Shown here: in pieces, positions 4,169-60,600 of the stretch
Position numbering within the stretch: position 1 is the stretch's first letter
How the letters are laid out: every line of letters begins with the position of its first letter
NCBI GenBank assembly: GCA_965198235.1
Contig: OZ240248.1
Coordinates: 4,992,001 to 5,056,000, forward strand
Length of the DNA stretch: 64,000 nt
Reading direction: 5' to 3'
Origin: Candidatus Poribacteria bacterium
GTDB taxonomy: Bacteria; Poribacteria; WGA-4E; WGA-3G
Made by a program: the position numbers and the translations under genes
The notes under the pieces: generated by a model
What the model saw: the letters and a program-made list of their open reading frames with translations, nothing else
What the model was told of the DNA's origin: nothing
Databases searched by the model: none

Positions 4169-5005
4169 TCACTTTGATGCCTTAATTTTTCCCCAGGTAG
4201 TCGCCAGTTTGCCGTGTGCTTCCACAGCAAGAAACGCGTCAACACCATCGTTCATAATGATATTGACTTCTTCCTCTGTCAAGCCACGTTTCCAGACGTT
4301 GAGGTCGTCCATCAGTCCAGCGAAGGGGCGGTTGTTGTCAATGTTATAGCCGACGCGTGCCCCGTTGCCCCAGTCTGGTGCAATAGGCGTGCCGATTCGT
4401 GCTTTTTCTTCACCGGCATTTTTTCCATTGATGTAAAGGACGGCTAACCCGTCAGCACGGCTGAACGTGCCAGCGTAATGCTGCCATTGATTCGCCTTGT
4501 TATCTCCAGCACGAATGTCAAAGATAGTCGCGCCGCCAGGACTCCGATTAAGCCAGCGATACCTGCCACTACCGCGTGCCTCTGGATGTACAAGCCATGT
4601 ATTATCCTTTGCACGTGCATTGAAAACTGCCATATCTGCGATGGCTTCAACGTTGATCCACGCGACGATACTCATGCCTTCAGTGGGAATATCCTCAGGC
4701 TTGATATTGGGTCCATCTAAGTCGAGAAAACTTCCGGTTACGAAGTGGGCGGCTTTCCCGAACTTCCCGTCATTCGATTGTGTGACCTTTCCATTAATCG
4801 CACCGTCGTAGCCACGTCCGGATTTTTCAACGACGGTATCACCCTTAAAGTCTTCATAATCGAAGTACAGCACCAAATCCGGATCTAAAACATCAGCTGC
4901 AAAAACTTCTACTGTAGGCACACAGAGAGTGCCTATCAGAAGCAGGCACACCAGATAAGGAATTAGTTTATAAGTCAGGATTGTAAATCTCTGGTTCTGT
5001 TTCAT
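4169..5005 (-). CDS. Secreted LamG-like protein, tandem paralog of 3285-4094
   Basis: Close sequence match to the neighbour; tail AVEAHGKLATTWGKIK. Confidence 0.85.
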   Translation of the reverse strand: MKQNQRFTILTYKLIPYLVCLLLIGTLCVPTVEVFAADVLDPDLVLYFDYEDFKGDTVVEKSGRGYDGAINGKVTQSNDGKFGKAAHFVTGSFLDLDGPNIKPEDIPTEGMSIVAWINVEAIADMAVFNARAKDNTWLVHPEARGSGRYRWLNRSPGGATIFDIRAGDNKANQWQHYAGTFSRADGLAVLYINGKNAGEEKARIGTPIAPDWGNGARVGYNIDNNRPFAGLMDDLNVWKRGLTEEEVNIIMNDGVDAFLAVEAHGKLATTWGKIKASK

Positions 5006-43803: not shown

Positions 43804-45150
43804 TTACACCCACGAAGATCCTAACTCGTGCACCTTCAATGATACTATAGTTACTGGATTTCCCTCCGTGTAGATTCCGATATCTGCGTTCTCCTGATCT
43901 GGGAGGAAATAGGATGTCATTGAGAGCTTACCATCGTCTCCGAATGCTTCGATAGAAATACGGTCGACTAAAATTTGCAAGCGGATTTTCCCATTTTGTG
44001 GCGCGAGGGGTCCGCTCTTTTCTAAGAATGTTAGTTGCTGCGATTCAACATCGTAACGGACATCCTGCCCGCGAATTTTGAAACCAACGGCGGTAGCATC
44101 GTTCAGGGCTATTTCAGCACGGATGTCGAACAACTCACCCGTCAGTCCAGAAAGCGGATCTTCATCCGGCTTGAGCGGGAGATCGCTCCACGCGTGCGTA
44201 TACATGTGGATATTTTCGATCTCTGAGACCGGTTCTCGATGTAGACGTATACCTTCTGGAGTCGTCCGAAGGGTCAACTTGCACGGAAAGCTCATCTGTT
44301 GATTAAAAGGCATATCCGGTGGGTTACTGCCACTCATCCAAGCGATTTGAATACGTCTGCCATCGGATTCTGGGACATCGCTCCATGTTTGCGCTGCATA
44401 GAAGTTGGCACCGTAGTCAGAGCGTTGTGCGTCCCTTTCCGGAGTAAAGGTCGTTCCATCGAAATTACCGACGTAATATTTCCCTGCCGCACCCCAGAAA
44501 ACCCATTTGGTATTATCGGGATCACCGTCAACGGGAAGCTCAAAGATGTCGGGGCATTCTGTGTCGGGAATCTGTAAGTCGGATAACCGTGTCCACTCCT
44601 TAAGGTTTGTCGAACCGAATAAGGTGTAGTCATTTTGGTCAAGATAGAGAGCCATCACCCACTTTTGCGTCGGTTCGTGCCAGATCACCTTGGGGTCGCG
44701 GTTACTCCCGACAAGATGTTCAATCACGGGATTCCCTTCATATTTTGTCCAACTTCGTCCGCGATCGTTGCTGTAGGCGATACTTTGTGTAAATGGAACC
44801 TCTTTCGGAGCGTGGCTGCCTGCCGACGTGTAAAAATTGACGAGTACCGCCTCGTCGCCGGTCTGAAAACCACCGGTATTCTTCCAGTCCACGACACCAG
44901 AGCCGGAGAAGATTGTACCGAGTTCATCTGGATGGAGGGCATGCGGAAGTTGCTTCCAGTGGACGAGGTCTGTGCTGACAGCGTGTCCCCAGGTCATATT
45001 GCCCCAATCGATACCGGATGGGTTGTGTTGGAAGAAGAGGTGAAATTCGCCTTTGTAGTGGATTAAACCGTTCGGGTCGTTAGTCCAATTGGTTTTCGGT
45101 GTAAAGTGGAACTGTGGACGATACGCTTCCTTGTAAGCCGTTTGAATCAT
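43804..45150 (-). CDS. Glycoside hydrolase family 32 (levanase/beta-fructosidase)
   Basis: WTNDPNG, WGHAVS, FSGS, RDPKV, ECPD. Confidence 0.93.
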   Translation of the reverse strand: MIQTAYKEAYRPQFHFTPKTNWTNDPNGLIHYKGEFHLFFQHNPSGIDWGNMTWGHAVSTDLVHWKQLPHALHPDELGTIFSGSGVVDWKNTGGFQTGDEAVLVNFYTSAGSHAPKEVPFTQSIAYSNDRGRSWTKYEGNPVIEHLVGSNRDPKVIWHEPTQKWVMALYLDQNDYTLFGSTNLKEWTRLSDLQIPDTECPDIFELPVDGDPDNTKWVFWGAAGKYYVGNFDGTTFTPERDAQRSDYGANFYAAQTWSDVPESDGRRIQIAWMSGSNPPDMPFNQQMSFPCKLTLRTTPEGIRLHREPVSEIENIHMYTHAWSDLPLKPDEDPLSGLTGELFDIRAEIALNDATAVGFKIRGQDVRYDVESQQLTFLEKSGPLAPQNGKIRLQILVDRISIEAFGDDGKLSMTSYFLPDQENADIGIYTEGNPVTIVSLKVHELGSSWV

Positions 45151-45301
45151 TAACTATTTCCTTTCCGTTTTGAAAATGTAAAGAGATACGCGCCTTTTTC
45201 GCTGTTTTGCACACTATTCTATGCATGTTTTTTATTTTGTCAAGTGTGCCTTCTTGTTCTTTGAGACCATTTAGTCTTCCCTATTATAAGCCCAACGGTT
45301 C

Positions 45302-45370
45302 AGGGAAACTATTTATTGCCAATCAACACGCATTAAGGAACGTGCGATGAATCGCACGACTACAAACACA
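45302..45370. repeat. GTAG-type REP doublet (degenerate left arm)
   Basis: 33 nt identical to 25630-25662; upstream AGGGAAAC.ATT.ATTGCC also shared. Confidence 0.8.
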
Positions 45371-45525
45371 CTCGACGGATAGCCTCTAATCCGCTGACCT
45401 TTGTGAAGGTGCATCCGAAAATGTGTATGAGTGGTAAAATTGAATCACTTTACTTACCCGACACTTTTCGCGGTAAAATTTCCGTGGAACCTGAAGCGGA
45501 ATAGCTGCAGTAACGGAGGCAGATA

Positions 45526-47067
45526 GTGATAAACCTTTGTAATGTCCTAAATAGTTCGATACGTCTACAGGTGCAGGCACATTGGGAACCGATTGCGGAT
45601 TCTACGTTTCGTATGCACAAGACATCGCCAGAACACGTTGAACTCTTCGATCTGTCACCAAACCATCCTGTCAAAGAATACAGGACAGACGCTTTCAAGG
45701 CATTTCTTCCGTCATCAACTGTAGGGGTGGGTGATGTTTGGGAACTTGATCCGAACAGTGTTGTCTCTTTCCTGCGCCAGTTTCATTCCGGTGTGACCAC
45801 ACCCGTATATCACGGTGCGGAGGGTGCGTTCGCCTGCTTACGTGCTTTTTCGTCAGTTTACGCTGAGATTGTTTTCCGAATTCATGCGGACTTCACGTTG
45901 GAAAGCGTCGCTTATGAGAAGTGGCGTGCCGCCAACGCCTCGGAGGACGACGATAATAAATCCCGTTTTGTCCCCTCCCATTTCGTCGGACGATTGTTAA
46001 TCAATTTGAAAGAAGGAACGGTTCGGGTGTTTTCGCTCTATCTGCCGGCACGCAATAGTAACGTTGTCATCAGTGCTTTTGGCGGTATTGATATGGTTTA
46101 TGTGCCGCGTATGGAACTCCTCGCTACGGACGAGACCGACAAAGACGAGATCGCGTGGGATGCTGCTATTACAACGGAAGAGGCACACCGGATGTTGGAA
46201 TTGAAGTTCTATAAATTCGCTGAGATTGATTGGCTACCGATTGATGAGGCAGTTGCACAGGCGAAAGCGACCAATCGTCCGATCCATGCAATCCTCGTCT
46301 GGGGGTGTTTAGACGATGAATCCTGCTGAGCGAACGGCAAATATTTGAGGGCGGGTCCGCTCTCCGATTCAGAAGTGATAACAACGCTCAACGAGAAGTT
46401 TGTCAATACATGGGTGCTCCTCCGGGAATTGCCAGAACTAATAGGTGGTGCGAAAGGCGAGGCGGTCAGCCTCGTCGCAAAAGAGATAAAACGCCACTAC
46501 ACTGACTCTGTAGATATTCTGGCACTCACCCCCGATGCGGAAGTTATCATGCATCAGCCGGAGATGGCTCTACCGTACAGGAACCAGGCGCAAGCGTATC
46601 TAAAAGTGTTACAGCATGCTGTGGACGCATTTGAAGGGAGACGCACCCGTGTAGGCAACGCGTCAAAATTAGATCGGAACCCGATCAGCTTGGGGACGGA
46701 GTTGATGGAGGTTTTACACGTTTTTAGCACATCCGACACCAATACCCCGACTTACACAGTTATTGAAATTGATACGACACCGTTTGAACGCGGTGGGATC
46801 CTCCACATTGAAATACATGTGGGTGAGAACAGGTTGGCAGGAACGTTTGAATTGTTTGATGCAGATACCGAAATTTCTACAAAAAATGATGAAGATGAAA
46901 CTCTGGATGGTGCATGGAACGTTTCATCCGGTGGTGTAGGGCACATCTTTCACGATTTTAGTCGGGGTCGGCGTTTCAAGTTAGTCGCTACAGGGGCAAA
47001 CAACCAAAAGAGTGTTTCCAATGCTTTTCTGGCACGTGTCTCTATCGTCCCACCGTTTGAAAAATAG
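45526..47067 (+). CDS. Selenoprotein N-like protein 1, Sec at TGA 46327-46329 (~513 aa)
   Basis: ORFs 45526-46329 and 46345-47067 are in frame; read-through gives VWGCLDDESC-U-ANGKYLRAGPLSDSEVITTLNEKFVNTW; GGAGG RBS before GTG; hairpin downstream of TGA. Confidence 0.8.
46347..46364 (+). promoter_or_regulatory. Candidate bacterial SECIS element
   Basis: GAGGGCG-GGTC-CGCTCTC hairpin with GU in the loop, 17 nt after TGA. Confidence 0.7.
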
Positions 47068-47200
47068 CCCATATTATTCCAACCTACCTGTCAACGCGTG
47101 CCTGCCTATCTACGTTTCTATGAAATACATGCCGAATCGGTGGTGTTGTGTCTGTTCTATTAGGTTTGTGTCCGATTTTCCCTGATTTTTTGAAGAATTA

Positions 47201-47229
47201 GGCAACTTTCTTGTCCGTTACCCGCGTCA
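47201..47229 (+). promoter_or_regulatory. Candidate ECF sigma promoter, copy 1
   Basis: GAATTA-GGCAAC-N18-CGTCA-CTATAT. Confidence 0.7.
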
Positions 47230-47357
47230 CTATATATTGATATGGGAATCTACGCGAACAGAAACTTTCCGCGGGGAGGGTGTTTACATAGATATTTCCC
47301 GTAATTTAGTGTCGGGTAAAATCAAACATCAAGACTCATTTTAGTAGGAGGCACCCT

Positions 47358-48398
47358 ATGAAACATAAGTCGGTTTCTCCTTTTTTAGGAGTTGGAGGCT
47401 GCACCAAATTTCTAATATTCAGTTATGCTATCAGTGCCCTACTCATGTTCAGCGGCAGCACTGCTGTATGGGCAAAAGCCCCGGAGACAGCGAAAATTAC
47501 ATTTATGTCAAAGCGGGACGGTAACGCTGAGATCTATATCATGAACCCCGACGGGAGTGAGCAAGTCAATCTCACCCAACATCGTGCAGCCGATTATACA
47601 CCAGCCTGGTCGCCAAACGGGAAACAGATATTGTTCAGCTCAGATCGAGATGGAATTTTTGATTTGTATCTTATGGACGCAGATGGCACAAATGTCCGGA
47701 AGGTGTTCGCAAGCAGCAAATACAGATGGGAGCCTGCCTGGTCGCCCGATGGTAAACGAATTGCCTATGCACAAGGAGATCCAGGAAAGGCAAAACTACA
47801 GTTTGGGTTACGATTTGTCCCTTACGCCGATCTCACACTTTACATCGCAACACTAAATGGAGACTCCGTTGAGAAATTGACGGATGGATTTGGTCCGAGT
47901 TGGTCTCCTGATGGACACGAGATAGCCTTTGTGGTGGGTGGTCGCAAAAGTACACTACTGGGTATTTACGACTTGAGGAAACGTTCCCAAAAAACGCTCA
48001 TCTCAAAGAAGATGCCGTGGATATTTGATCCCAGCTGGTCTGCACAGGGTGACAGAATAGCTTTCGCGAAACTCGAGGGTGCTGCGTTTGATGCACAAGG
48101 TTTTCTTAGGTTTAAGAAGGGTACGATTTACACCATAGATAGTGCTGGGGGTGGACTTCATCAGATTACCGACGAGAACTCTTCTGACCCAACCTGGTCC
48201 CCAGATGGCAGCGAACTCATTTACAACTCTCGGGTGGGTTTTTCGCAACTCTTCAGAACGGGCTTGAACGGCGACAATCCAACACAACTGACGCATGACG
48301 GAAGTAATTTGAGTCCAGATTGGTTTGACCCCTTTTATAGCGTTTCGCCGTCGGCGCAATTGTTAACGACGATGTGGGGAAAAATCAAAGTGGATTAA
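47358..48398 (+). CDS. Secreted TolB-like PD40 beta-propeller with TWG tail
   Basis: Repeated PAWSPDG motifs; tail [16 protein letters not shown]. Confidence 0.88.
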
Positions 48399-48493
48399 GT
48401 TAACTATAAATCGTTCCAGATTCAGGGCAGTGAATGCCTTTTGCTTCCAATTGTCAAAATTTATTCCCAGATTTTCATTTTTTTTCAGAATTA

Positions 48494-48522
48494 GGCAACC
48501 GTTTTTCCGATCCTCCGCGTCA
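48494..48522 (+). promoter_or_regulatory. Candidate ECF sigma promoter, copy 2
   Basis: GAATTA-GGCAAC-N18-CGTCA-CTATAT. Confidence 0.7.
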
Positions 48523-48594
48523 CTATATATCAACACGATATTTGTGTGACAAATTTTGGAAGATTCAAATGACTCCATAGGAGGAAGCGAAAAC

Positions 48595-49416
48595 ATGTTA
48601 CGGACATTTACTGCTGCTTTTTCGAGTGTCATTATGCTATTGCTGGCAGCTTCTGCCAACGCGGGTTTGGATGAAGATCTCGTTTTTTATCTGACCTTTG
48701 ATAACGTTAAAAATCAGACGATTATTGATGAATCTGGCAATGGTCTTGATGCAGAAATACTTGAGCATGTCGAGATTGTCAAGGGTAAATATGGAGATGC
48801 AATCCGTCTTAAAGGTCAAAGCGGGGATTGCGTTAATATCCCTGCTCAAGAGAAATTGAAAGTTATAGGCGAGATAACAATGATGGCATGGATTTATTCT
48901 CCAGAAACATGGAACAACGAGAAGATGCATTGGCTGGAAAAAGATTGTCATTTCGTTGTTCCGATTGGTTGGGCGCACTGTTACGGTATCGCTGGTGTTG
49001 ATGTCGGTAACGGACCAGAAATCTTTTTGTTTTTGGGATCACAGGTAGAGGGGAAATGGGACCGGCAGGAGTTCAGAACTCCACATAAAATGGGCGAAAA
49101 AAAATGGCATCACGTTGTCGGAAGTTACGATGGCGAAACCATGAAAATCTATGTGGATGGTACAGTCATAGGGGAAGAAAAGAAAAAATTCAATTTCTTT
49201 GGAGACAATGACGCGGACGTTCGGATCGGATGTGCAAAAGATGTCCCCCACCTTACATTCACAAACGGCTCTATTGATGAAGCTGCGGTCTGGCAACGAG
49301 CACTGAGTGATGATGAAATTAAACAAGCCATGACAGGGAACTTTCTCGCTGTTTCGCCGAGCGATAAAGTGGCGACGACTTGGGCGGATATGAAAAGAAG
49401 AGCAGTCGTTCCTTAA
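48595..49416 (+). CDS. Secreted LamG-like protein
   Basis: LVFYLTFD, WHHVVGSYDG, GSIDEAAVWQRAL; tail VSPSDKVATTWADMK. Confidence 0.85.
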   Translation: MLRTFTAAFSSVIMLLLAASANAGLDEDLVFYLTFDNVKNQTIIDESGNGLDAEILEHVEIVKGKYGDAIRLKGQSGDCVNIPAQEKLKVIGEITMMAWIYSPETWNNEKMHWLEKDCHFVVPIGWAHCYGIAGVDVGNGPEIFLFLGSQVEGKWDRQEFRTPHKMGEKKWHHVVGSYDGETMKIYVDGTVIGEEKKKFNFFGDNDADVRIGCAKDVPHLTFTNGSIDEAAVWQRALSDDEIKQAMTGNFLAVSPSDKVATTWADMKRRAVVP

Positions 49417-49459
49417 CGGCTACCTGCAAAGTCAGAATTTCCCCATAAAGGAATGTAGG

Positions 49460-50482
49460 ATGAAAACAATACGGTTGTTAGTTTTTGCCATATTGAACAT
49501 ATTGATGCTGAACGTAAGCGTTTGCCTCGCTTTCGCAACAGCACCCACAACCGCCAAAATTCTGTTCACCTCTTCACGGGACGGCAATTATGAGGTCTAC
49601 ATCATGAATCCGGACGGTAGTGAACAGGTGAATTTAACACAACATCGCGCAAATGATTTTCAAGCCGTATGGTCCCCCACTGGGGAGCAGATTCTTTTTG
49701 TCTCCGATCGCGATGGCGGCATCCGAGACTTGTATCTGATGGACCCCAGTGGATCCAATGTCCGACGCGTTTTCACGAGGAAACGAAAGTCTTATAGGGA
49801 TTCTCCGACGTGGGCACCCGATGGCAACCAGATTGCTTACGTACACCTGAATTGGAACGGTGTCAGGTTCCATATCTACGTTGCAATCTTGGGTAAACAA
49901 AAAGAGGAACACCTCGTTGAGGGTAGACGTCCGACGTGGTCACCCGATGGAACGAAAATAGCATATATGTCTTATATTGTAGATACCTGCCGAATTGCTC
50001 TTATTGACCCCCACACACGAAGGCAAAAACACCTCCTATCGAGGAAAGCAACGCCTTGGCAAAATCATCCATTTTGGTCGGCTACGGGGAGCAAACTCGC
50101 TTTTTCTTGGAATAAGAATCCGTTACCGCGCCTTTTGCCGGGTGATCGTTTCCCATCCGTATGGCTGGATAAGGAGACAATCTATATTGTGAACAGCGAC
50201 GGGACCGATCTCCGAGAACTTCTGGATGAAGCTGGGCCCAGAGCACAGTATCCAGTGTTGTCGCCAGACGGGAAAGAGGTACTTTATACACAAGAAATTA
50301 AGGGTCGCCTACAAATTTTCAAACTTGATGTACACAGTGCCACTCGGGCACAGTTGACAAATATCGGGCGAGTCTTTGAGGCGAATTTCGGAGGGGATTG
50401 GTTCGATCCTGTGTATTCGTTGCCTGTTTCGCCACAATCGCGACTGCTAAGCACAGTATGGGGAAAAGTAAAAAAGAAATAG
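49460..50482 (+). CDS. Secreted TolB-like PD40 beta-propeller
   Basis: WSPTG/WAPDG/WSPDG repeats; paralog of 47358; tail VSPQSRLLSTVWGKVK. Confidence 0.88.
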   Translation: MKTIRLLVFAILNILMLNVSVCLAFATAPTTAKILFTSSRDGNYEVYIMNPDGSEQVNLTQHRANDFQAVWSPTGEQILFVSDRDGGIRDLYLMDPSGSNVRRVFTRKRKSYRDSPTWAPDGNQIAYVHLNWNGVRFHIYVAILGKQKEEHLVEGRRPTWSPDGTKIAYMSYIVDTCRIALIDPHTRRQKHLLSRKATPWQNHPFWSATGSKLAFSWNKNPLPRLLPGDRFPSVWLDKETIYIVNSDGTDLRELLDEAGPRAQYPVLSPDGKEVLYTQEIKGRLQIFKLDVHSATRAQLTNIGRVFEANFGGDWFDPVYSLPVSPQSRLLSTVWGKVKKK

Positions 50483-50568
50483 TGTCATAGGTAGAATCAC
50501 CATGAAACTGCTGTGTTATGCACGTTTTCCGCTTTGTGTATCATATTTTCTTTATGTTTGCAGAATTA

Positions 50569-50597
50569 GGCAACCGTTTTGTCTGTCTCCCGCGTCA
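50569..50597 (+). promoter_or_regulatory. Candidate ECF sigma promoter, copy 3
   Basis: GAATTA-GGCAAC-N18-CGTCA-TTATAT. Confidence 0.7.
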
Positions 50598-50669
50598 TTA
50601 TATATCGATACGATAGCTGTGTGACAAATTTTAGAAAGTTCAAATGACTCTATAGGAGGAACAGAAAAC

Positions 50670-51491
50670 ATGTTACGGACATTTATTGCTGCTTTTTCGA
50701 GTGTCGTTATACTGTTGTTGGCAGCTCCTGCCAACGCAGGTTTGAATGAGAAACTCGTTTTTTATCTGACGTTTGATAATGTTAAAGATCAGACAGTTGT
50801 TGACGAATCTGGGAATGGTCAGGACGCAGAGATACTTGAGAACACCGAGATTGTCAGGGGCAAATATGGGAATGCCATTCATATTACAGATGATGGTCAG
50901 GATTGCGTCAGTATTCCTTCTCAGGAAAAACTGAAAATTACAAGCGAAATAACAATGATGACCTGGATTTATTATCAAGAAACATGGAAAGGCAAAAGGA
51001 TGTTGCATTGGCTTGATAAAGGCTGCCATTCGGGAGACGGTTGGGCTGGAACTTACGGTATCGGCAGTTCCGATATCGGTAACGGACCAGAGATTGTGTT
51101 GTTTTTCGGGTCGCGGGAGAAACAGGGGATTACGGACCGGCATGAATTCGCAGTTCTACACAAAATGGGTGTTCAAAAATGGCATCATGTTGCTGGGAGC
51201 TACGATGGGAAAACCATGAAAATTTATTTAGATGGTAAAGTCATAGGTGCGGAAAAGAAGAATTTCAATCTCTTTGGTGGTAATAACGTGAACCTCAGGA
51301 TCGGATGCGCAAAAAACAGCCCGCAGTATGCATTTGCCAACGGTTCTATTGACGAAGCCGCAGTCTGGCAACGAGCATTGAGTGATGATGAAATCAAGCA
51401 GGCGATGGTAGGGGACTTCCTCGCTGTTTCACCGAGTGATAAAGTTGCAACGACTTGGGCGGATGTGAAAAAGAGGATGATAGCCCGTTAG
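50670..51491 (+). CDS. Secreted LamG-like protein, paralog of 48595
   Basis: High similarity including the 5' UTR; tail VSPSDKVATTWADVK. Confidence 0.85.
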   Translation: MLRTFIAAFSSVVILLLAAPANAGLNEKLVFYLTFDNVKDQTVVDESGNGQDAEILENTEIVRGKYGNAIHITDDGQDCVSIPSQEKLKITSEITMMTWIYYQETWKGKRMLHWLDKGCHSGDGWAGTYGIGSSDIGNGPEIVLFFGSREKQGITDRHEFAVLHKMGVQKWHHVAGSYDGKTMKIYLDGKVIGAEKKNFNLFGGNNVNLRIGCAKNSPQYAFANGSIDEAAVWQRALSDDEIKQAMVGDFLAVSPSDKVATTWADVKKRMIAR

Positions 51492-51610
51492 CGGGTTTCT
51501 GGAAAGTGAGAATGCTATCACCCTTATTGATGCTTCAAAATCCTGTAAGTGATAATGAAGCGGAATATTTAAGCATTGTTATTTAAGGTATGTGCACCTT
51601 TGCAGAATTA

Positions 51611-51639
51611 GGCAACCGTTTTGTTTGTTCCCCGCGTCA
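51611..51639 (+). promoter_or_regulatory. Candidate ECF sigma promoter, copy 4
   Basis: GAATTA-GGCAAC-N18-CGTCA-CTATAT; downstream GAATCTACGCGAA shared with copy 1. Confidence 0.7.
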
Positions 51640-52066
51640 CTATATATCGAGATTAGAATCTACGCGAAGAACAACTTTTTGTATAAGTGTTGTTTGCGTA
51701 GAATGTTCTTGTTAATTGCTATAACGTGAGTTCAATATGAGAAATTGGTTCACTATATAGGTCGTGTTGAACAAAAAGGGACATAACACCCAAGATGCAT
51801 ATTTTGCTCCGTAGGAGCAACATGTCTATAGCAGTCGTCCGACACGACGTTTCCGCGCCGTAGGTGCGGTATGTAGTATCACCAGAGATAGCTCCGCTGG
51901 GAGTGCGAGTACTTGGGCATCGGGTTTTCTATTCTCACTGCGAAGCAATAGTACTGCTCTGGAGCGATGGAATTTGTCCGTCACCTGCTTGGAATAGGCG
52001 TGATATATCCTGTCGAATCTTTCTAATCTTTATGTCAACTCCACGTTACTATAAGGAGATTTGAAG

Positions 52067-53746
52067 ATGAAAATCTTAACCGTTGGGTTTCTTATTCTGG
52101 TAATGATGAGTGGAGTGCTGAATGCCGATAACCACTCAACAACTCACAACAAAATTACACTGAACCTTGACGGGACCCCAGAAGTATCTGTCAAAGGCTT
52201 CATTGCTCCGATTGAATATACACAATACAATTTCCATGTGGAGTGGGATGAACTGGCAAATCTGCGGGTTGCTGAGCCGGAGAAGCGGTATTCTGCATCG
52301 GTTTTCCATGCCTTTCTGCCCTCCGAAGCGGTTTCTGTAGGCGATCTCTGGCAGATTGAGGAAGAGGGGGTGCTAGAATTACTAAGGCAACTGAACCCCA
52401 ATCCGAGGCTGGACCTGGACATCAATATGGGAGATTCCCGTGGACTGTGGGCATGTCTGCGCGCCTACAATGATGAATTTGCTAAGATTGTGTTCCGCAT
52501 CCATGCAGAATTCGTCTTAAACGATGGTCGGTTCACTCCATCTCAGTTTACAGGACATCTTGTTATTGATCGAATTAGAGAGAGGATTGCCTCCTTCAAG
52601 ATGTATGTTCCTGAAGGTGTACTGAATTTTGATGTCGGGCGAAACAGTATCGGAGCTATAGATGTCGGTTTTTGCCCGCAAATGGAACTCCGTGCTAAGG
52701 CACCAGAAGTGGTATCGGACATCAAGTTTGCGGAGTCCATCACCCAAGAAGCGGCTGAGCGGGTGCTGATACTGCGTTTCTACAGATCGCAACAAATCAA
52801 CTGGGTGTCTCTGGAAGAAGCGTTAGAGACGGCACCGGCGCAACGAAAACCTGTTCATGTTGTTTCGATAGATGGACCGCTTGCGGATGAGTCGTGCTGA
52901 GGGAGTGGCAAAACTCTGAGGGCAGTTGTCCTCTCTGACGATAAAATTATAGAGTTCTTGAACGAAAACTTTGTTAACACATGGGTGCCGAATTCTGAAT
53001 TAGGGCGCGTCTCCAGTTTGCGGGAGCCGATTGACAAGAGACGCGAGCGCGAAGGTAAAACGTTTGACACAAGCCACGCCTTGGCACAAGCAATTATAAA
53101 GGGTTGGAAAGAGGGGTCGCCTGTGGATTGTCTGGTTATCTCGCCGGAGTTTGAAGTGATGGGTAGGCAACCTGTCAACGAAATCGGGTGGTCCAACGGA
53201 GTAGCATTTTACATGAATTTCCTCCAAGAGTCCTTAGAGGGGAAACTACCAGGGTTCGGTGAGGCCGCCTCGAAACCTTTACCGAAACCTAGTTCAGAGT
53301 CTTACTCTGGATTAGGTGCTGTTGTGCCAGAGGATTTAAAAGTTATACTCACCCGTGAAAAGCCCCAGCAGGAAGTTCTCAGCATTTTCCGGACACCAGA
53401 ATCCGGCTATCAAGATTATACTGTCGTTGAAATTGATACGACAGCGTTTAAAGGCGGCGGTATGCTTACTATTGATATCTTAGTAGGAAGTGCTGAATCC
53501 AAAGGCTCGTTCGATCTTTATGATGGTGACACTGAACTTCCAACACAAGGTATGCCTCGCGGCGCGCTTACCTCTGCGTGGGATGTTCCTCCCGGTAAAA
53601 GAGGAACAATCAAGTATCGTTTTGACCGGGGTAAAGTTTTTAAGTTAGGAGCTACAGGCAGTTGGTTCAGTAAGGAAGGGAACATCAACGCTTTTCTCGC
53701 TACAATTTCTGTAGCCCCTATGGCGAAAGAAAGTAACGAACATTAA
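52067..53746 (+). CDS. Selenoprotein N-like protein 2, secreted, Sec at TGA 52898-52900 (~559 aa)
   Basis: ORFs 52061-52900 and 52958-53746 are in frame; read-through gives GPLADESC-U-GSGKTLRAVVLSDDKIIEFLNENFVNTW; signal peptide MKILTVGFLILVMMSGVLNA. Confidence 0.85.
52918..52933 (+). promoter_or_regulatory. Candidate bacterial SECIS element
   Basis: GAGGGC-AGTT-GTCCTC hairpin with GU in the loop, 17 nt after TGA (same offset as copy 1). Confidence 0.7.
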
Positions 53747-53842
53747 CGCCACTTCCATGCTAATGTGTCTCCCAAAAAAGTCTGCCCAGCATGGAATATT
53801 ATTATAGCGTCTAATGAAGTTATCCCGTTCTGGAGGTAACGA

Positions 53843-55171
53843 ATGAAAAACGACGATGTCGAATTAATTCAAGGCAGTCTTATAGGCGATGAAAAAGCCT
53901 TTGCGAAGTTGGTGAGAAAATACCAGAAGCAGGTTCACGCACTCGCGTGGCGGAAAGTAGGCGATTTCCACATCGCTGAAGAGATTACGCAGGATACCTT
54001 TTTAAGGGTTTATAAGAAACTGGCAACGCTGAAGGATCCGCATCGTTTTGCAGGATGGCTTTATAGAATCGCTGCACGCCAATGCCATGCCTGGCTCAGA
54101 AAGAAACGGATGCAAACGCAATCGCTTGAAGACACAGACATCGAACTGATAGAGGGAGGGACGTATTCTCAATACATTGCCGAGGAGCAGGAGAAAGCTG
54201 CGGTAGATGCGCAACGCGATATTGTCCAAAGGTTACTCGCTCGGCTGCAGGAAAGTGAACGCACTGTCGTCACACTCCACTACTTCGGGGAGATGACCTG
54301 TGAAGAGATTAGCCGATTTTTGGGTGTATCAGAGAGTACCGTTAAGAGTCGGCTCCGCCGTGCGCGGCACCGCTTAAAGAAGGCGGAACCCATGATCCGA
54401 GAGGCACTGGAAGGCTTCCAAGTTAGGGCGAATCTCACCGAGAATATCATGCAAGAAATTGCCCGTATCAAACCTACTCCACCGCCCAGTGGTAAACCGT
54501 TTGTGCCGTGGACAATTGCCGCCTCAACCCTTGTTCTCGTTGTGATGGCACTTGGAGCAAGTAGTCAGTACTTAACACGTTTCCAACAACCTTACAATTT
54601 TGATGCCACATCCGAAATGACAGTAGAACTCATTGACACGCCTATGGTTCTGAATCTCGCATCGAAACCGGATGTGCGGACCCAAGCCGGTAAATCTGTG
54701 ACACCGAGTAAAGGCGACGGACATACCCCGAGCACAAATCAATCAGAATATGTGCCGAGATTTCTTTCTGCCCAAGCAAAGAACGTCGTGCTTGATAATA
54801 AACAGCCTTCGCAGGATGTTTTGAGCATTTTCCAAACACCGGCGGCGGGCTATCAAGACTACACTGTCATTGAGATTGATACGACGGCATTTAAAGATGG
54901 CGGCACGGTCACTATCGACCTTTGGATTGGGAGCGCAGAGGCTGCTGGTGCTTTCATTCTGTTTACAAGCGACAGCGAAATCCCCACAGACAGTATGCCT
55001 AAGGTTATACTCACCTCAGCATCAGGAATCATACCCGGTAAATCAGGGCGGATCACGCACCGTTTTGACGAAGGCACACGCTTTAAGTTAGGAGCTACCG
55101 GTAATTCGTTCAGTGGGGAAGGGAAGGTCAATTCCTTTCTCGCAAAAATCTCTATAGACGCTACGTTGTGA
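53843..55171 (+). CDS. ECF sigma-70 factor fused to a TM helix and an extracytoplasmic domain
   Basis: Region 2 (AEEITQDTF, FAGWLYRIA), region 4 (EEISRFLGVSESTVKSRLRRAR), TM WTIAASTLVLVVMALGA; C-terminal domain shared with both SelN-like proteins. Confidence 0.9.
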   Translation: MKNDDVELIQGSLIGDEKAFAKLVRKYQKQVHALAWRKVGDFHIAEEITQDTFLRVYKKLATLKDPHRFAGWLYRIAARQCHAWLRKKRMQTQSLEDTDIELIEGGTYSQYIAEEQEKAAVDAQRDIVQRLLARLQESERTVVTLHYFGEMTCEEISRFLGVSESTVKSRLRRARHRLKKAEPMIREALEGFQVRANLTENIMQEIARIKPTPPPSGKPFVPWTIAASTLVLVVMALGASSQYLTRFQQPYNFDATSEMTVELIDTPMVLNLASKPDVRTQAGKSVTPSKGDGHTPSTNQSEYVPRFLSAQAKNVVLDNKQPSQDVLSIFQTPAAGYQDYTVIEIDTTAFKDGGTVTIDLWIGSAEAAGAFILFTSDSEIPTDSMPKVILTSASGIIPGKSGRITHRFDEGTRFKLGATGNSFSGEGKVNSFLAKISIDATL

Positions 55172-55509
55172 TAATCTTAATCCGCGAACTTGTATTGAAA
55201 CTTTCGCAACTCCTGCCTAATCGCTGTATTTCTCGTTCTGCCGTTTTCTCTCCACTTATTTGACAAAAGGTAAACCCTCCAGCTCGTCCTACGTTTTAAC
55301 TTTCCAATATACCGCCAGTAGAATCATTTGTACACTTTGAATCGCAGGAAATCTATGAGGAAATCCCACGAACCTGTATGTATGAGTTGATTCATGGTAT
55401 AATTCTACCAATAAATTCGTTTGTCCAAATTTAATCTACATAGGACTTACACAAACACGGATGTCTGGGACTACAAGTGAGCCTGATTTTTACGTTTTTT
55501 CTGAACTTA

Positions 55510-55538
55510 TGCAACCCTTTCACCAGCAAATTGCGTCA
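55510..55538 (+). promoter_or_regulatory. Candidate ECF sigma promoter, copy 5
   Basis: GAACTTA-TGCAAC-N18-CGTCA-TT, followed by the tandem repeat TAACAATGAC x2 (55541-55560). Confidence 0.6.
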
Positions 55539-55647
55539 TTTAACAATGACTAACAATGACAAACGGTAGAATTTATCGGACAAACAGTGCAATAAACCGA
55601 AGAATGGGGACATAGTGCCAAAGTCCTACTCTCCTAAGGAGAAAGCA

Positions 55648-57492
55648 ATGTTAAAGAAATGTTTACCCTTATGCTTCACCGTGTCGATATTTCTGATAAT
55701 CCTTCTATTCGCCACTTTCAATGTGGTAGAAGCCCTACCAGATTCATCTAAGGTATCCGAATCGGCACCCGTAGATACACCTTCTCAAAAATCTGAAAGC
55801 GCACCAGTTCCTGTTCCAGACAACAGTGTTCTGAACCTAATTCCTGAAAAAGCATTAGGCGTTATCTACTGTCCGAGTCTGCTGGAATTGGATAACAGAA
55901 TTAACAAGATAGTAACTGAGCTCTCCCCTCAAATCGAGGTCCCCGATGTATCTATGCAGATTTTGAAGAGTATTTTCGGAGATGCGTTTGAAAGTTTAGC
56001 CGATTTTGAAGAAATTGGGTTGGATTTGAACCAAGATTTCGCGGTCTTCATTACCAGTTTGCAGCCACTGCATCTCTCGGCACTGGGGCATCTAACGGGT
56101 CCTAAGGCAATGAAACAGATAATTGAAGCCGAAGGCGGCACACCCTCGCAATATAAAGGCGTAACCTATTGGAGTGCCAGCGAAGGTAATAAGAGTTTTG
56201 CTATTTTGGAGAATATCCTCGTTTTTTCAACGCCTCGCGGGATTTGTGAGAACGTTATTGATACCTATAACGGAGCGGGGTATGCTATCACACAGAACCC
56301 AAATTACACCACTTTTCTTATAGATATTTTGGAGGGTGACGATCAAGTGGGGGTGTGCGTTGATGTTGAAGCCATTATTGCCACCTTCGATAGTCTGCCT
56401 GAAGAGGAATTGGAGTCAATAGTAAACGCTCTCCAAGATGGGGATCCGATATCCAAGTCAATTGCATCCTTCCTTGAAGATATACCTGGAGAGGAAATAG
56501 GAAGCATTGAGCAGTTCCGATCAATAAACGTCCGGCTGGAGGTAGAGGGAACCGGTGTGCAAATTAAGCCGTCCGTGAAATTCAGAAGCGATAGTGAATT
56601 TCTGAAAGTCTTGGAAGAAAGGTCTGGTGAATTAACTTTCCTCGACGAACTCCCAAATCGTGCAGCTATGAATGGTGCCGTTCAAGGTTGCCCACAGTTG
56701 CTGGTTGAGCTGAGTAGGTTCTGGTTAGATACTCTTCCCACGGTAACTCCAGAACAACAGGCGCAGCGGGATTTGCTCCTCAAACAGGTGAAAGATTTTC
56801 ATGAATCTCTTGCAGATCGATGGAGGGTTTCTTTCGGTTTTGAGGATACGCTTTTACCGACTTATCTGTTTATCTATGAACTGAAAGATGAACAGGCTGC
56901 CAGGGTCTATATGGATGAGGTGTTTCTGGAACATCTCAGCGATCAAGACGCTTATGCAGGTAAGTCGATCATGCACAACCGCGTTGAAATTAAAAGTTAC
57001 ATCTTTCCTGATCTCACAGAGGGGCTTCCAGAGGAATTGCCCGAAGAAATCTCTGGTTTGTTGCCCACCAAATGGCACTGGTATTATGCATTTACCGAAG
57101 GGCAGCTCCTTTTCGCAACGGGTACAGGTCCAGAATCAATTCAAATGGCACTTGATAGGAAAGCAGGAAACGAGGCGAAATTTTCTGAGCATCCGAGTTA
57201 TCAAAAACTCGTCGACATATTAGGGACTGACTCCAACATCTTCTGTGCGATATCTCCAGCCATCGCGGCTAAAAACTCTTTGCCGATGTTTGGGAAGATG
57301 GATCCGGACAATGCCGCGGTAATGCAAATACTGGCAGGGATATTCATGAGTCTCCCTGAGAACTATAGTATCGGTTTTTCCGCCAAAAGAACGGACAATA
57401 GCATTGATGCGAAACTGCTCATTGACCTTGGTGACTTCAAGCAGCTTATACAAATGATGGAAATGATGGCTCAAATGAGGCAGAGGCAATAG
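55648..57492 (+). CDS. Secreted acidic hypothetical protein (DUF3352-like architecture)
   Basis: AAGGAG RBS, signal peptide, Pro/Ser linker; family call is tentative. Confidence 0.65.
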   Translation: MLKKCLPLCFTVSIFLIILLFATFNVVEALPDSSKVSESAPVDTPSQKSESAPVPVPDNSVLNLIPEKALGVIYCPSLLELDNRINKIVTELSPQIEVPDVSMQILKSIFGDAFESLADFEEIGLDLNQDFAVFITSLQPLHLSALGHLTGPKAMKQIIEAEGGTPSQYKGVTYWSASEGNKSFAILENILVFSTPRGICENVIDTYNGAGYAITQNPNYTTFLIDILEGDDQVGVCVDVEAIIATFDSLPEEELESIVNALQDGDPISKSIASFLEDIPGEEIGSIEQFRSINVRLEVEGTGVQIKPSVKFRSDSEFLKVLEERSGELTFLDELPNRAAMNGAVQGCPQLLVELSRFWLDTLPTVTPEQQAQRDLLLKQVKDFHESLADRWRVSFGFEDTLLPTYLFIYELKDEQAARVYMDEVFLEHLSDQDAYAGKSIMHNRVEIKSYIFPDLTEGLPEELPEEISGLLPTKWHWYYAFTEGQLLFATGTGPESIQMALDRKAGNEAKFSEHPSYQKLVDILGTDSNIFCAISPAIAAKNSLPMFGKMDPDNAAVMQILAGIFMSLPENYSIGFSAKRTDNSIDAKLLIDLGDFKQLIQMMEMMAQMRQRQ

Positions 57493-57627
57493 GTTCGTTC
57501 TGATTCGGCTGACGATGTTACCCTGGGATTTACGCAGATTAGTGTTATACACTTTACTCTCGCTGGCGAGGTGTTTTTGCTGGGGTGTTTCTCTCGCCTA
57601 CCAGTAGAAGGAAATTTCGATTCCCGA

Positions 57628-60600
57628 TTAGAGTTCTGCACTGACCGTCATTTCCAAGCGGTGTTCGGGTTTCCGCTGTTTTGTGGAGAGTAAGCGGTAA
57701 TTGAGCCGAAGCAGAAGGTCGGTAAATTTTCGCAGTCTGTAATCTGCGGTTGTGCGGACTTCGTGGCTGATGCCTTCGTAGAAAGTGTACTGTGCAAAGG
57801 GTATGCCACCCTTACTCTCGCCATAGCCGAGTTTATAGTTGACATCAATGCGTCCTTTACCAATAAGACTATACGTGAGGCGATTTTCAAATGAGAAGGT
57901 CCGCGTTCTGGCTTCTGGCTCCTCGTCAAGCTGCTCCTTGTCAATTGTACGATTATATCCTCCGATACCGCTCCATCGCACGGAATTGCTGAGTTCATAT
58001 CGGAGGCTCAATTCAGTCGTCTGCTCAAATTGGCGTAGGTCTGAGATAGGCGTTGATGGAAGGTCTCCCCTGTTCGTTATAGTCTCGGTTTCCTGAGTGA
58101 GTTCTTCCACTTGGAGTTGACTGTATTTCTCAGTTTCCCGGCGTTGTTCCCAGTTTACACCGAGGGACATACGTTGCGTTGGGTTCACGGAGAGACCGAC
58201 ATCCCATGTCCTGTGCCGCCTGTGGCGTTCTTGATTATTAATCCGACGATTGAGGGTCTCGCCAACACGAAGGTTGAACTCGAAACTGAATGCTGGTGAT
58301 GGCGAGAATTCGAGGCGATGGTGTTGATTCAACCGACCAAAAAGCGTTTCTGAGCCTTGTAGACTTTGGAGCAGATAGAGGGACACCGCCTCCTCTACCT
58401 CCTGTTCCTCGGTCAGCCACAGGCGCGTTTGACCTCTGAGGGCATTTAGAAACCATTCTAAGCGAGACAGGCGTGGGCTTCGTGCCGCGATTGTGTTGGA
58501 TAAAGATGGTGTTTGTTGATTCCCTTCTTGGGTAGATGATGACCGAGTCGGGCGCAAGCTATCACGTTTCAACATTGATTCACGATGCTGTTGTTGTCTT
58601 GCTCTGGCACGCCGTGTGAAAAACTGGCGGGGTTGAAAACGCACTCGGAATTCTGCATCTACCGCTGTTGTCGGTTTATCACCCACATTTTGATAAATCT
58701 TGACATAAGTGCCCTCCTCGGGATCCTCTACGTAGTGCAGGTCATCCAACTTTACGTAGTATCCTTCACCGGGTTGAAGCAGAACACCAGTGTGTGGATG
58801 GATGTCGGTATAGACTTCGCGGCGTTGGCTTGTTAGTTTTTTGTCTAATTCATAGGCGATTTCTATATCAATTGCCCGACTGAGTGGTGTGAGCTGGAGA
58901 TTGACATCCGCGAGTTGCGTCGTTGTATTCGCACCGAGATCGGTGTGTGCTTTCAACATCCGGCGCGCAATGTTTGCTGTCAGATTCACCCCTCCGTTGA
59001 GAAAGGATTGTTGTTGTGAAAGGACGCCTACCTTCCAAGTCCGTGCTGTGGTATTTCGCTGCCAATCCGACAAACCGATAGGCTCATCATCAACAGTAAG
59101 CAACGGTTCTTTAGCAAAAGCCTCCTCAAGTTCATAACTGGTGTTCAAAGATACCCAGTTGAAATCAGCGAGGTCAATACGTCCAGTTGCGCGGTTCCGC
59201 TTTCGGTTGAGCGTAGCATTACGCGCCTCGCTCGACTCCACTCTTCCCAGTGTTCCTATAATTCTGAATGGACCGAGAGGATACGACAGATTACCTTCTT
59301 GACGTGACTTCTGTAGCGATTGTGTCCTTGTTGAATCTGCCCCCTCCATCCGGGAACTGCTACGATAGTCGTCCCAACGGAGATTCGGCAACCTCTTCAG
59401 TAATTGCGTTCCTGCAGACGTGCTCTGTTCCGACTCTACTGAATTCTTCTCTTGTCCAATTATAGGCAGCGTGCTTTCCCGCGTGAGGGTAGGGCTAACT
59501 CGTCCACTACCTAAACGCCGGTTGAAGTTGACCCCCCAGTTGAAATTGTTGCGGATCGTTGCGTTTGCAGTAGGTAAAACTTCTGTTTCATCTGTGGTCG
59601 CGGTGGCCTCCTGAACGGTTCCCTCGCGTTCTGGGTCTTTCTCTTCGCTCCTACCGACTCCCGCGTCAACCTCCAGCCAACCTGTGGGAATCATTCGGAT
59701 GTCGAAGTTCATGGTTCTCTCATCTTGGGAAGTTCGCGGGCTGCCCGCTGTGTCGAGCAGGAACGCATCATCAAATCCCTCTGTGGCGTATTGTGTTTCG
59801 TAACGGGAGCGGGAACGGTTGCTGCTTGCGGCACCCACAGGCACGAAGTTAGCATCCATCGACCGTATGTCGAGGTTTGTGGTCAGTTTAGGACGCAGCT
59901 GATCCGTCCATGTTGCAAAGTCCCAATCGGCATAGCCGATCAGTTTCCACGCCCGACTTACCTCTTTCCGATCGACAGCAGAGTAGGTATTTTTATCAAG
60001 ATTACTATAGGCGAATTCGCCTTGAATCCACGCCTGTTCTGTAACGTTCAGACGACTCTCCAGTCCCCATACAGTATGCTTTTGTGGTGGTATGAGGGGC
60101 GATTCGTCTTCCTTAGGATTAAGGATGTTTTGGCGAAGTGCCTCCAGTTCTACATCTTCAAACGTGATTAGAGACTGTTCTGGTTGATTCAGATCTGCTT
60201 CAACAGCGTAGGACGCTCCAAAAGTTAAACGTTCACCCGGCAGTGTGAAGACGCTGCTAAGTCCGTAAAGATTCTGTTGATACGCCCGATCTTCCGGGAT
60301 GTATTCAAAGTCGATCCGAATCACATCGTTGCTCGTTATGAGATGCTTACTGTTAAACTCGACAATTGGGTCTCCATATTCGCGGATGATGTAATCATTG
60401 TTTTCGCCGCGCCGCATCCTTTCACCGTTCAGCCAAACGATTTCACTGCCTGCTTTTACAAGGACGTATTGTCCATCAACTGTGAGTCGATATTCACTGC
60501 GTCCTTCCTCACCGCGCAGGACTAAACTTGTAGACTGGCCCTTCGGAATGGCAGTCGGAATGAAGTGAAAGTCCACCCATTTGAAATCGCCTTCAACCTG

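Follow-up and report, generated by a model that had tools for sequence, protein, structure and literature searches.

Selenoprotein N (SelenoN) is an animal protein which in humans carries its selenocysteine (Sec) within an SCUG motif, and a review cites the mutations Sec462Arg and Arg466Gln. The literature consulted describes it as lacking a solved structure, and human SEPN1 is described as switching between oligomer and monomer (PMC7474598). On the bacterial side, two extracytoplasmic function (ECF) sigma factors, IutY (ECF243, Pseudomonas putida), which acts via Prc and RseP, and SCO4117 (ECF52, Streptomyces coelicolor), are described as hybrids released by regulated intramembrane proteolysis (PMC8999054). 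Here we describe a locus with relatives of the first and a sigma factor built like the second in Candidatus Poribacteria bacterium, from a phylum of sponge symbionts (PMC3909097). The window is the whole 64,000-nucleotide (nt) stretch of contig OZ240248.1 that was analysed, and the locus is an island of eight genes at 45526..57492, in positions of the window. Its core is a pair of adjacent genes: SelN2, a predicted SelenoN-like selenoprotein, and an ECF sigma factor with a transmembrane (TM) segment and a C-terminal domain (Cdom) shared with SelN2.

A first-pass annotation of the sequence had described eight co-oriented genes, and all eight were found as plus-strand genes, between a minus-strand GH32 gene (43804-45150) and a minus-strand open reading frame (ORF) of 1265 amino acids (aa) at 57628-61425, which matches no Pfam family. 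The annotation had also read the whole island as one system, and that reading had to be narrowed: the conserved unit is the SelN2-ECF pair, and the other genes make up a regulon at the level of the genus, recruited from very large families of secreted proteins.

The first and sixth genes each consist of two ORFs joined in frame through a single TGA. SelN1 (45526..47067, plus strand) encodes a SelenoN-like protein of 513 aa with its TGA at 46327-46329, in the motif DESC-U-ANG, and a Cdom at about 46690-47064. SelN2 (52061..53746, plus strand) encodes a protein of 561 aa with a putative signal peptide for export and an adjacent C279-U280 pair, the TGA being at 52898-52900. A HMMER search with SelN2 as query against 1.84 billion cluster representatives returned 698 proteins at E up to 0.001, including UniRef100_A0A4X2KGP4 (P0269), a wombat protein of 588 aa named "EF-hand domain-containing protein", at E 6e-23. 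With BLASTP, residues 104-308 of SelN2 align to residues 256-490 of the wombat protein with 32% identity over 241 aa (E 6e-31), and the alignment spans the SelN2 segment LADESCUGSGKTLRAVVLSDDKIIEFLNENFVNTW, Sec motif included. The wombat protein was taken as SelenoN on the strength of its name and length and of its motif position, which fits the human sites given in the review. By these alignments, SelN1 and SelN2 are true homologues of animal selenoprotein N.

The likeness extends to homology over the conserved luminal core, Sec in S-C-U-G (in SelN2; ESC-U-ANG of SelN1 is a variant of SCUG) and a thioredoxin-like (Trx-like) fold around the Sec. The homology to the animal protein covers the end of the SelN2 N-domain and the start of its Trx-like domain. 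Both proteins would also sit on the non-cytoplasmic side of a membrane, SelenoN in the lumen of the endoplasmic reticulum (ER) and SelN2 as judged from its signal peptide, and the oligomer-monomer switching of the animal protein may have a parallel in the dimerising Cdom predicted for SelN2. The differences are equally clear. Unlike SelenoN, the SelN proteins have no N-terminal membrane anchor, and Pfam finds no EF-hand in them; they carry an extra C-terminal beta-sandwich; the candidate bacterial Sec insertion (SECIS-like) hairpin lies inside the ORF just past the UGA and not in a 3' untranslated region (UTR); there are many paralogues per genome; and the gene is coupled to an ECF sigma factor. 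NCBIfam has no family for SelN1 or SelN2. In the literature searched, no paper joins SEPN1 with Poribacteria and none uses "SelN-like" or a similar term for bacteria; text matches to "selenoprotein N" in the BSepDB paper were rejected, being the words "selenoprotein name". No paper on bacterial SelenoN relatives, their expansion or their coupling to a sigma factor was found in that literature. Two further lookups added little: the Protein Atlas placed the homologue P0003 in a solely poribacterial "hypothetical" cluster (0.78), which is uninformative, and a locus search with P0139 returned only one poribacterial locus.

Several lines of evidence point to Sec at the TGA codons, in keeping with the selenium dependence which the first-pass annotation had proposed. 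A single in-frame TGA is present in SelN1 (ESC-U-ANG), in SelN2 (DESC-U-GSGKTLR) and in all five SelN-like paralogues of the genome. The genome encodes selA (592 bits), selB (348 bits) and selD, all above their cut-offs, and ARAGORN places a tRNA-Sec gene adjoining selB. The selD gene (L019, C1:3115227-3116150) has one in-frame TGA of its own and is probably itself a selenoprotein form. Sec/Cys exchange among homologues is a classic signature of a true selenoprotein, and three non-truncated bacterial homologues, P0139, P0142 and P0177, have Cys at the Sec position (ESCCGSG, EACCATG). Five full-length poribacterial homologues without a stop (P0003, P0005, P0009, P0011 and P0014) have Gly there, in DEAC-G-ASGK, and may be redox-inactive or single-Cys variants.

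In relatives, the in-frame TGA is kept in all of the best-scoring matches listed across 45 genomes, two without a stop excepted (267 further matches lie beyond those listed), and both flanks of the TGA are open and conserved in these matches. Many database matches end exactly at query residue 279 of SelN2, and gene callers have therefore cut them at the TGA, much as the annotation had expected of standard pipelines. We infer that Sec is inserted at these codons.

A candidate hairpin begins 20 nt past the UGA in all five SelN paralogues of the genome. In SelN1 it lies at 46347..46364 on the plus strand, with a 7-bp stem and a GGUC loop (GAGGGCG-GGUC-CGCUCUC), and in SelN2 at 52918..52933, also on the plus strand, with a 6-bp stem in a slightly shifted register. 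In an alignment of 24 sequences from this genome and related ones, standard pairs fill 94.4% of the pair cells, and the covariation, at 0.134 against 0.097 in shuffled alignments, was reached by one of 500 shuffles. This support is modest because the same stretch encodes a conserved peptide, LRAGxLS. Rfam gave no match at E up to 1 on 44000-58500.

The structure of SelN2 was predicted with AlphaFold2 from a 36-sequence alignment, and its folds were searched with Foldseek and then VIA-align. The one model has a mean pLDDT of 86.3 and folds across the Sec site with high confidence. It is composed of a beta-rich N-domain (residues 30-215), a Trx-like domain (225-395), a disordered linker (401-424) and the beta-sandwich Cdom (427-552, about nt 53333-53731). 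Foldseek on the whole model gave only weak sandwich matches, and the domains were resolved by VIA-align. The Trx-like domain (about 241-395) is nearest to DsbH (2ju5; Z 12.6, rmsd 3.5, 125 residues aligned), followed by a Bacteroides cytochrome-c-biogenesis-related domain (Z 12.4), AGR3 (Z 12.1) and ERp19 (Z 12.0). Pfam Thioredox_DsbH matches SelN1 weakly, at E 0.0056 and below the cut-off. DsbH, AGR2-AGR3 and ERp19 (TXNDC12) are thus the best structural matches of the modelled Sec-bearing domain; in contrast to them, the redox pair of SelN is an adjacent Cys-Sec and not CxxC, and the Trx-like domain of SelN2 is set between a SelenoN-specific N-domain and the Cdom. SelN2 would act by reductase chemistry.

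Folded alone, the N-domain reaches a pLDDT of 95.9 and a pTM of 0.91, and a comparison with 48,161 representative chains shows no clear solved relative (best Z 5.7, none reaching 8). A search of the PDB by sequence found no related chain for SelN2 or for the 36-sequence family profile. The Cdom is nearest to PliG (Z 11.6), the Tk-subtilisin C-domain (Z 10.4) and GOLD (Z 9.9), with ColG/ColH clostridial collagen-binding and PPC domains at Z 9-10. These Z values of 9-12 are at the level of a common sandwich, and several unrelated sandwich families fall at Z 9-11.6. Pfam on the Cdom alone, and on the juxtamembrane segment of the ECF protein alone, found nothing at E up to 10.

Directly downstream of SelN2 lies the gene for the sigma factor (53843..55171, plus strand; 442 aa). 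Residues 1-185 match the ECF sigma r2 and r4 domains in Pfam, residues 222-244 (nt 54506-54574) form a hydrophobic segment, and the Cdom follows at nt 54782-55168. Like IutY and SCO4117, the protein joins ECF sigma domains, a membrane span and an extracytoplasmic C-terminal domain in one polypeptide, and from its domain order the island sigma is a membrane-tethered hybrid of this already known kind. RseP is encoded in the genome, and by analogy with those hybrids the island sigma may be released by proteolysis. Unlike them, it has no FecR-like or zinc-finger anti-sigma domain detected by Pfam or NCBIfam, its outer domain duplicates one found in the enzyme of the same probable operon, and it belongs to a poribacterial family with interchangeable outer domains. 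At least 17 paralogous ECF sigma-TM proteins are encoded in the genome, with sigma domains 51-65% identical and a common juxtamembrane segment, QYLxRFQxPYSF..EPTIEIID, followed by differing outer domains. In the paralogues these outer domains are mostly repeats of about 700 aa with STDGGxTW-like motifs, and in one a leucine-rich repeat (LRR); the Cdom is found in the island ECF. Examples are at C1 253116-256115, 962928-965903, 2070235-2073147, 3987821-3990937 and 4213510-4216512, and several adjoin PD40 or LamG genes.

Over its C-terminal 125 or so residues, the ECF protein shares 59% identity with the SelN2 Cdom and 42% with that of SelN1, and the ends of the SelN2 and ECF genes form a DNA repeat (53591-53720 and 55034-55163, 74% identical). 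The shared domain which had been held to link the island is therefore real, although it connects only three of the eight genes, SelN1, SelN2 and ECF. When 27 Cdoms are placed in a tree, those of the 12 ECF proteins fall together in a single clade, separate from those of SelN2 (support 96/95); it follows that the sigma gained its outer domain once, from a SelN2-type Cdom, and has retained it. Related fusions occur elsewhere. P0142, from a high-GC sequence, has a sigma, a hydrophobic segment and a Cys-form SelN in one protein, and P0209 has a poribacterial-type sigma and juxtamembrane segment, then a SelN1-like domain, and ends in DDESC, that is, at the Sec codon. The Cdom has other carriers as well, namely an M56 peptidase, an S9 peptidase that contains PD40 repeats and a caspase-like protein.

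Co-folding of the ECF Cdom with the SelN2 Cdom gave a complex score of 0.74, a mark reached by 116 of 157 solved complexes and by 2 of 215 mismatched pairs, whereas the best of three controls scored 0.00. Between runs, 97% or more of the contacts recur, and the partner has a pLDDT of 89 or higher. The prediction supports pairing of the two Cdoms, a contact that may also be made in the cell.

Most genes of the island share a promoter-like motif. A 28-nt motif, GCAAC-N17-GCGTCA, occurs at 47202, 48495, 50570, 51612 and 55511, always on the plus strand, and a scan of the 5.17-Mb genome with the looser form GCAAC-N16-19-GCGTCA gives 17 matches; five of these lie inside one 8.3-kb stretch of the island, all with 17-nt spacing. 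The candidate ECF-type promoters extend the motif to the form AATTAGGCAAC..(17 nt counted from GCAAC)..GCGTCAYTATATAT; they precede PD40a (47196..47229, plus strand; AATTAGGCAAC-N17(from GCAAC)-GCGTCA), LamGa (48489..48522, plus strand), LamGb (50564..50597, plus strand) and SelN2 (51606..51639, plus strand, 420 nt upstream of the gene), and DUF3352 has a variant (55505..55538, plus strand; ACTTATGCAACC-N-TTGCGTCA), which is kept in the related genome G050. The claim of a shared promoter motif held in that the motif goes far beyond chance and precedes five genes; it failed for SelN1, PD40b and the ECF gene, which have none of their own. Gaps of 43 and 96 nt are short and suggest LamGa-PD40b and SelN2-ECF operons. 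With SelN2 and ECF in one operon, the sigma would be autoregulated, and the promoter before SelN2 is probably its autoregulatory promoter; many ECF sigma factors are autoregulated. The island ECF would be the sigma that reads GGCAAC-N17-GCGTCA promoters.

The extended motif was not found upstream of 15 PD40, LamG and DUF3352 paralogues elsewhere in the genome. Three further good copies precede an ABC ATPase gene (C1:886908, plus strand), the gene of a propeller-repeat protein (3226238, minus strand) and an ABC-2-type permease gene (4761982, minus strand), which may be additional members of the regulon. By comparison with shuffled sequence, general sigma-70 promoter and terminator scans gave nothing above background (22 vs 19.1 and 6 vs 11.9). 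The leader of SelN2 (51640-52060) is unusually long at 420 nt, and its first 70 nt or so resemble the PD40a leader (TCTACGCGAA...). Three relatives (G055, G054 and G016) have a PD40 gene immediately before SelN2, and in G055 and G054 this PD40 gene stands between the promoter and SelN2; the island may have lost such a gene from its leader region.

SelN-like genes are present in 45 of 61 genomes sampled across the phylum; one genome can have as many as 24 matches, and tandem arrays are frequent. By family, they occur in 35 of 36 genomes of f1, 5 of 6 of f2, 4 of 11 of f3 and none of 7 from the remaining families. The Sec trait itself is phylum-wide, since selA is found in 60 of the 61 genomes, and SelN makes up a large part of its use in one order. 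Genus g7 has selA in 7 of 7 genomes and SelN in 0 of 7. For synteny, 14-20 kb were fetched around the best SelN2 matches, giving 15 loci from 14 genomes chosen among the top-scoring matches. A SelN2-like gene with Cdom is directly followed by an ECF-TM-Cdom gene in 12 of the 14 genomes (7 of 7 in g1, 5 of 6 in g2, 0 of 1 in g5), and the motif is kept before the SelN2 orthologue, or before a PD40-SelN2 operon, in both genera; the dedicated ECF which the first-pass annotation had seen is borne out. The synteny check turned out differently for the accessory genes. Close PD40 genes (at least 58% identity) stand beside the pair in four genomes, LamG in two with a fragment in a third, DUF3352 in three (downstream of ECF in G055, G050 and G057) and SelN1 in two (G055 and G050, 79-84% identity). 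They accompany the pair only within the island's own genus, and only in some of its genomes, and the proposal of the eight genes as one conserved unit is not supported. Wherever PD40, LamG and DUF3352 are present in the same genus, the motif is kept before them, and a near-identical variant stands before neighbouring ECF paralogues in relatives.

Two variations of SelN architecture were also seen. In one paralogue of this genome (L005/L046, par_1.80M, C1:1798435-1800177), a redoxin/TlpA-like domain (WSGFC), recognised by reading the sequence, replaces the Cdom, and the gene is preceded by a TPR-AhpC/TSA gene. Some SelN2-like proteins of relatives, at L022:17386-19392, L026:11049-13058 and L034:11128-13134, carry about 110 extra residues past the Cdom (SAEDVMN.FVEA.KNLD...).

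The remaining genes of the island belong to large families of secreted proteins. PD40a (47358..48398, plus strand, 346 aa) and PD40b (49460..50482, plus strand, 340 aa) are putative exported beta-propellers, with Pfam PD40 at E 2.7e-27 and 5.7e-29. Both match TolB propeller repeats in NCBIfam, at E 1.6e-47 and 2.1e-43. An identification as TolB itself was rejected: the scores of 162 and 149 bits compare with an equivalog cut-off of 343, the N-terminal domain of TolB is absent and, unlike TolB, the proteins carry a poribacterial C-terminal tail. LamGa (48556..49416, plus strand) and LamGb (50670..51491, plus strand) are Laminin_G_3 proteins (E 2.2e-20 and 1.6e-21), LamGa being a putative exported one with a TTWA-type tail; judged against LamGb, its true start is likely the ATG at 48595. 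The last gene, DUF3352 (55615..57492, plus strand), encodes 625 aa with an apparent N-terminal membrane anchor or signal. It matches DUF3352 at 35.0 bits against a gathering cut-off of 26.8, over part of the model only, matches no NCBIfam family and has one paralogue in the genome, at C1:4688155. Signal peptides and the TM span were assigned by eye from the sequences. Read in this way, PD40a, PD40b, LamGa, LamGb and SelN2 have signal-peptide-like N-termini, DUF3352 has a membrane anchor, and no signal peptide, anchor or hydrophobic span is visible in SelN1; most products of the island would be exported or membrane-bound.

The LamG genes and their promoters are a recent duplicate (48482-49348 vs 50557-51423, spaced by 2075 nt), with 77-85% nt identity, and LamGa and LamGb are 69% identical in aa. 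The duplicated unit of PD40 plus LamG that had been proposed holds for this half only, since PD40a and PD40b are 43% identical and PD40a is 37-44% identical to ten other PD40 paralogues of the genome. Twelve close PD40 copies and dozens of LamG matches are found in the genome, several of them beside other ECF paralogues. All PD40 and LamG proteins of the island end in a conserved tail, encoded at 48366-48398, 49375-49416, 50450-50482 and 51450-51491, and 103 ORFs of at least 150 aa across the genome end in the same way, with approximately [LP][AP]V[EDS]PxxKLxTTWGxIK followed by 0-12 residues. Further tail sites in the window are near 4201 (minus strand), 26583 (plus) and 27403 (plus). The tail resembles a C-terminal sorting tag, one used throughout the genome and lacking a membrane segment, and no known tag could be named as fitting it. 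The PD40 and LamG proteins belong to a class of about a hundred tailed secreted proteins, and they also occur beside other sigma-TM paralogues.

Short, low-depth contigs from two sponge metatranscriptome runs match parts of the island exactly or almost exactly. One contig of 1443 nt (45212-46654, one difference) crosses the SelN1 UGA, and further ones fall on PD40a, on the ECF sigma domain and on DUF3352. The contigs come from RNA libraries, which may include DNA, and they give no strand, transcript starts or co-expression. Parts of the island are without cover in runs X6 and X7, which in contig data is not proof of absence.

Taken together, we are led to a reading of the island as the regulon of one membrane-tethered ECF sigma, autoregulated, whose outer domain forms a pair with its counterpart in the exported target selenoenzyme, SelN2; we hold this to be moderately probable. 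The core would be the two-gene operon of SelN2 followed by ECF sigma-TM-Cdom. SelN2 would be an exported selenocysteine oxidoreductase, and SelN1 its paralogue without a visible signal peptide. The sigma2 and sigma4 domains would be cytoplasmic, with one membrane span and the Cdom outside the membrane, where it would pair with the SelN2 Cdom (or with itself). The amount or state of full-length periplasmic SelN2 would then set how easily the sigma is released by regulated intramembrane proteolysis. Once freed, the sigma would read the GGCAAC-N17-GCGTCA promoters and raise SelN2 and itself and, in this genus, also the exported PD40 propellers, the LamG proteins and DUF3352.

A number of observations weigh against this reading. 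SelN1 has no signal peptide, and an "envelope" role therefore fails for some of the genes. The motif is missing before SelN1, PD40b and the ECF gene, and the near-identical motif at ECF paralogues makes it ambiguous which sigma reads which site. PD40, LamG, SelN1 and DUF3352 are absent from the 14-20 kb stretches fetched in genus g2, and three other SelN paralogues of the genome have no adjacent ECF and mostly housekeeping neighbours. The Cdom interface is pseudo-symmetric, and the model therefore does not separate a heterodimer from a general tendency of this fold to pair with itself; close relatives of true partners pass the complex-prediction test as well. No electron donor of the DsbD/CcdA type was seen in the island. 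The hairpin is too conserved for much covariation, one of its six pairs having changed on both sides, which makes for thin support, and the RNA evidence is weak. Sec insertion, enzyme activity and sigma release are all predicted steps, and the redox function and the host interaction that had been suggested for the island both remain at the level of inference.

The alternatives differ mainly in what they make of the Cdom and of the accessory genes. One is that there is no contact between enzyme and sigma, and that the Cdom binds an outside ligand, such as an envelope glycan or a collagen-like component of the sponge matrix, which the ECF senses and to which SelN is anchored. The Cdom does resemble binding modules (PliG, ColG/ColH, PPC and GOLD), its occurrence on M56 and S9/PD40 peptidases and on a caspase-like protein is a pattern typical of a portable binding module, and the RNA-library runs that hold parts of the island are labelled sponge metagenome. 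However, similarity at that Z level is common to the fold, the domain has no Pfam family and no identifiable ligand, and the complex prediction favours direct Cdom-Cdom pairing; we regard a ligand-binding Cdom as unlikely. Another is that only SelN2 and ECF form a functional unit, with PD40, LamG, DUF3352 and SelN1 as chance neighbours and a motif generic to the ECF family. This would suit the sheer abundance of close PD40 copies, LamG matches, tailed ORFs and sigma-TM paralogues, the near-identical motif before other ECF genes in relatives and the lack of accessory genes near the g2 pair. It sits badly with the motif being found before PD40a, LamGa/LamGb and DUF3352 both in the island and in same-genus counterparts, yet not at the 15 outside paralogues, and having only about three further good copies in the genome, and we judge it distinctly improbable.

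The SelN proteins may instead be eukaryote-like proteins exchanged with the sponge host and acting on host matrix or on the redox state of the secretory pathway. Their closest named relative is an animal protein, the expansion is large (45 of 61 genomes, up to 24 matches) and Poribacteria are known sponge symbionts; but no secretion apparatus or host-targeting signal was seen, and Cys-form homologues occur in high-GC sequences that do not look poribacterial, one of them fused to an ECF, which indicates a bacterial signalling role. An exchange of this kind seems very improbable to us. Least credible by far is that the TGAs are real stops and that each SelN is two genes or a decaying pseudogene. 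Automatic public gene calls do end at the TGA, many at query residue 279, but against this stand the TGA with open, conserved flanks across the matches listed from 45 genomes (the two without a stop aside), the Cys homologues, the complete Sec machinery, the conserved hairpin and an AlphaFold2 model that folds across the site.

Within the favoured reading, that of a tethered sigma paired with its own target enzyme, a more speculative extension, which we consider doubtful, is that SelN2 is both enzyme and co-sensor. The Cdom of SelN2 would hold the outer Cdom of the tethered sigma, and with too little full-length SelN2 the sigma would come free and turn on the regulon. SelN2 could run short by becoming caught on oxidised substrates, or under selenium scarcity, with translation halting at the UGA, upstream of the Cdom. 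Separately, and with the same doubt, animal SelenoN and the poribacterial expansion are perhaps linked by gene transfer between sponge and symbiont. If the co-sensor were real, the pair would be a feedback loop that reports periplasmic selenoprotein supply or redox load, like chaperone-titrated stress sensors, and if the transfer were real, the bacterial proteins could be a tractable model for the myopathy-linked human protein.

Selenoprotein N, still poorly understood, carries mutations in human congenital myopathies, and the bacterial branch of the family, which keeps Sec in the same motif, could offer a simple model of it and provide recombinant proteins for work on structure and chemistry. 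The bacterial gene context also hints at function, since a periplasmic envelope-stress setting parallels the ER lumen. The SelN family is a test case in which Sec is kept while the SECIS differs between domains of life, and hundreds of poribacterial "hypothetical" half-genes would really be whole selenoproteins. For sigma factor biology, the island would be an example of a tethered sigma whose sensor copies a domain of its own target enzyme.

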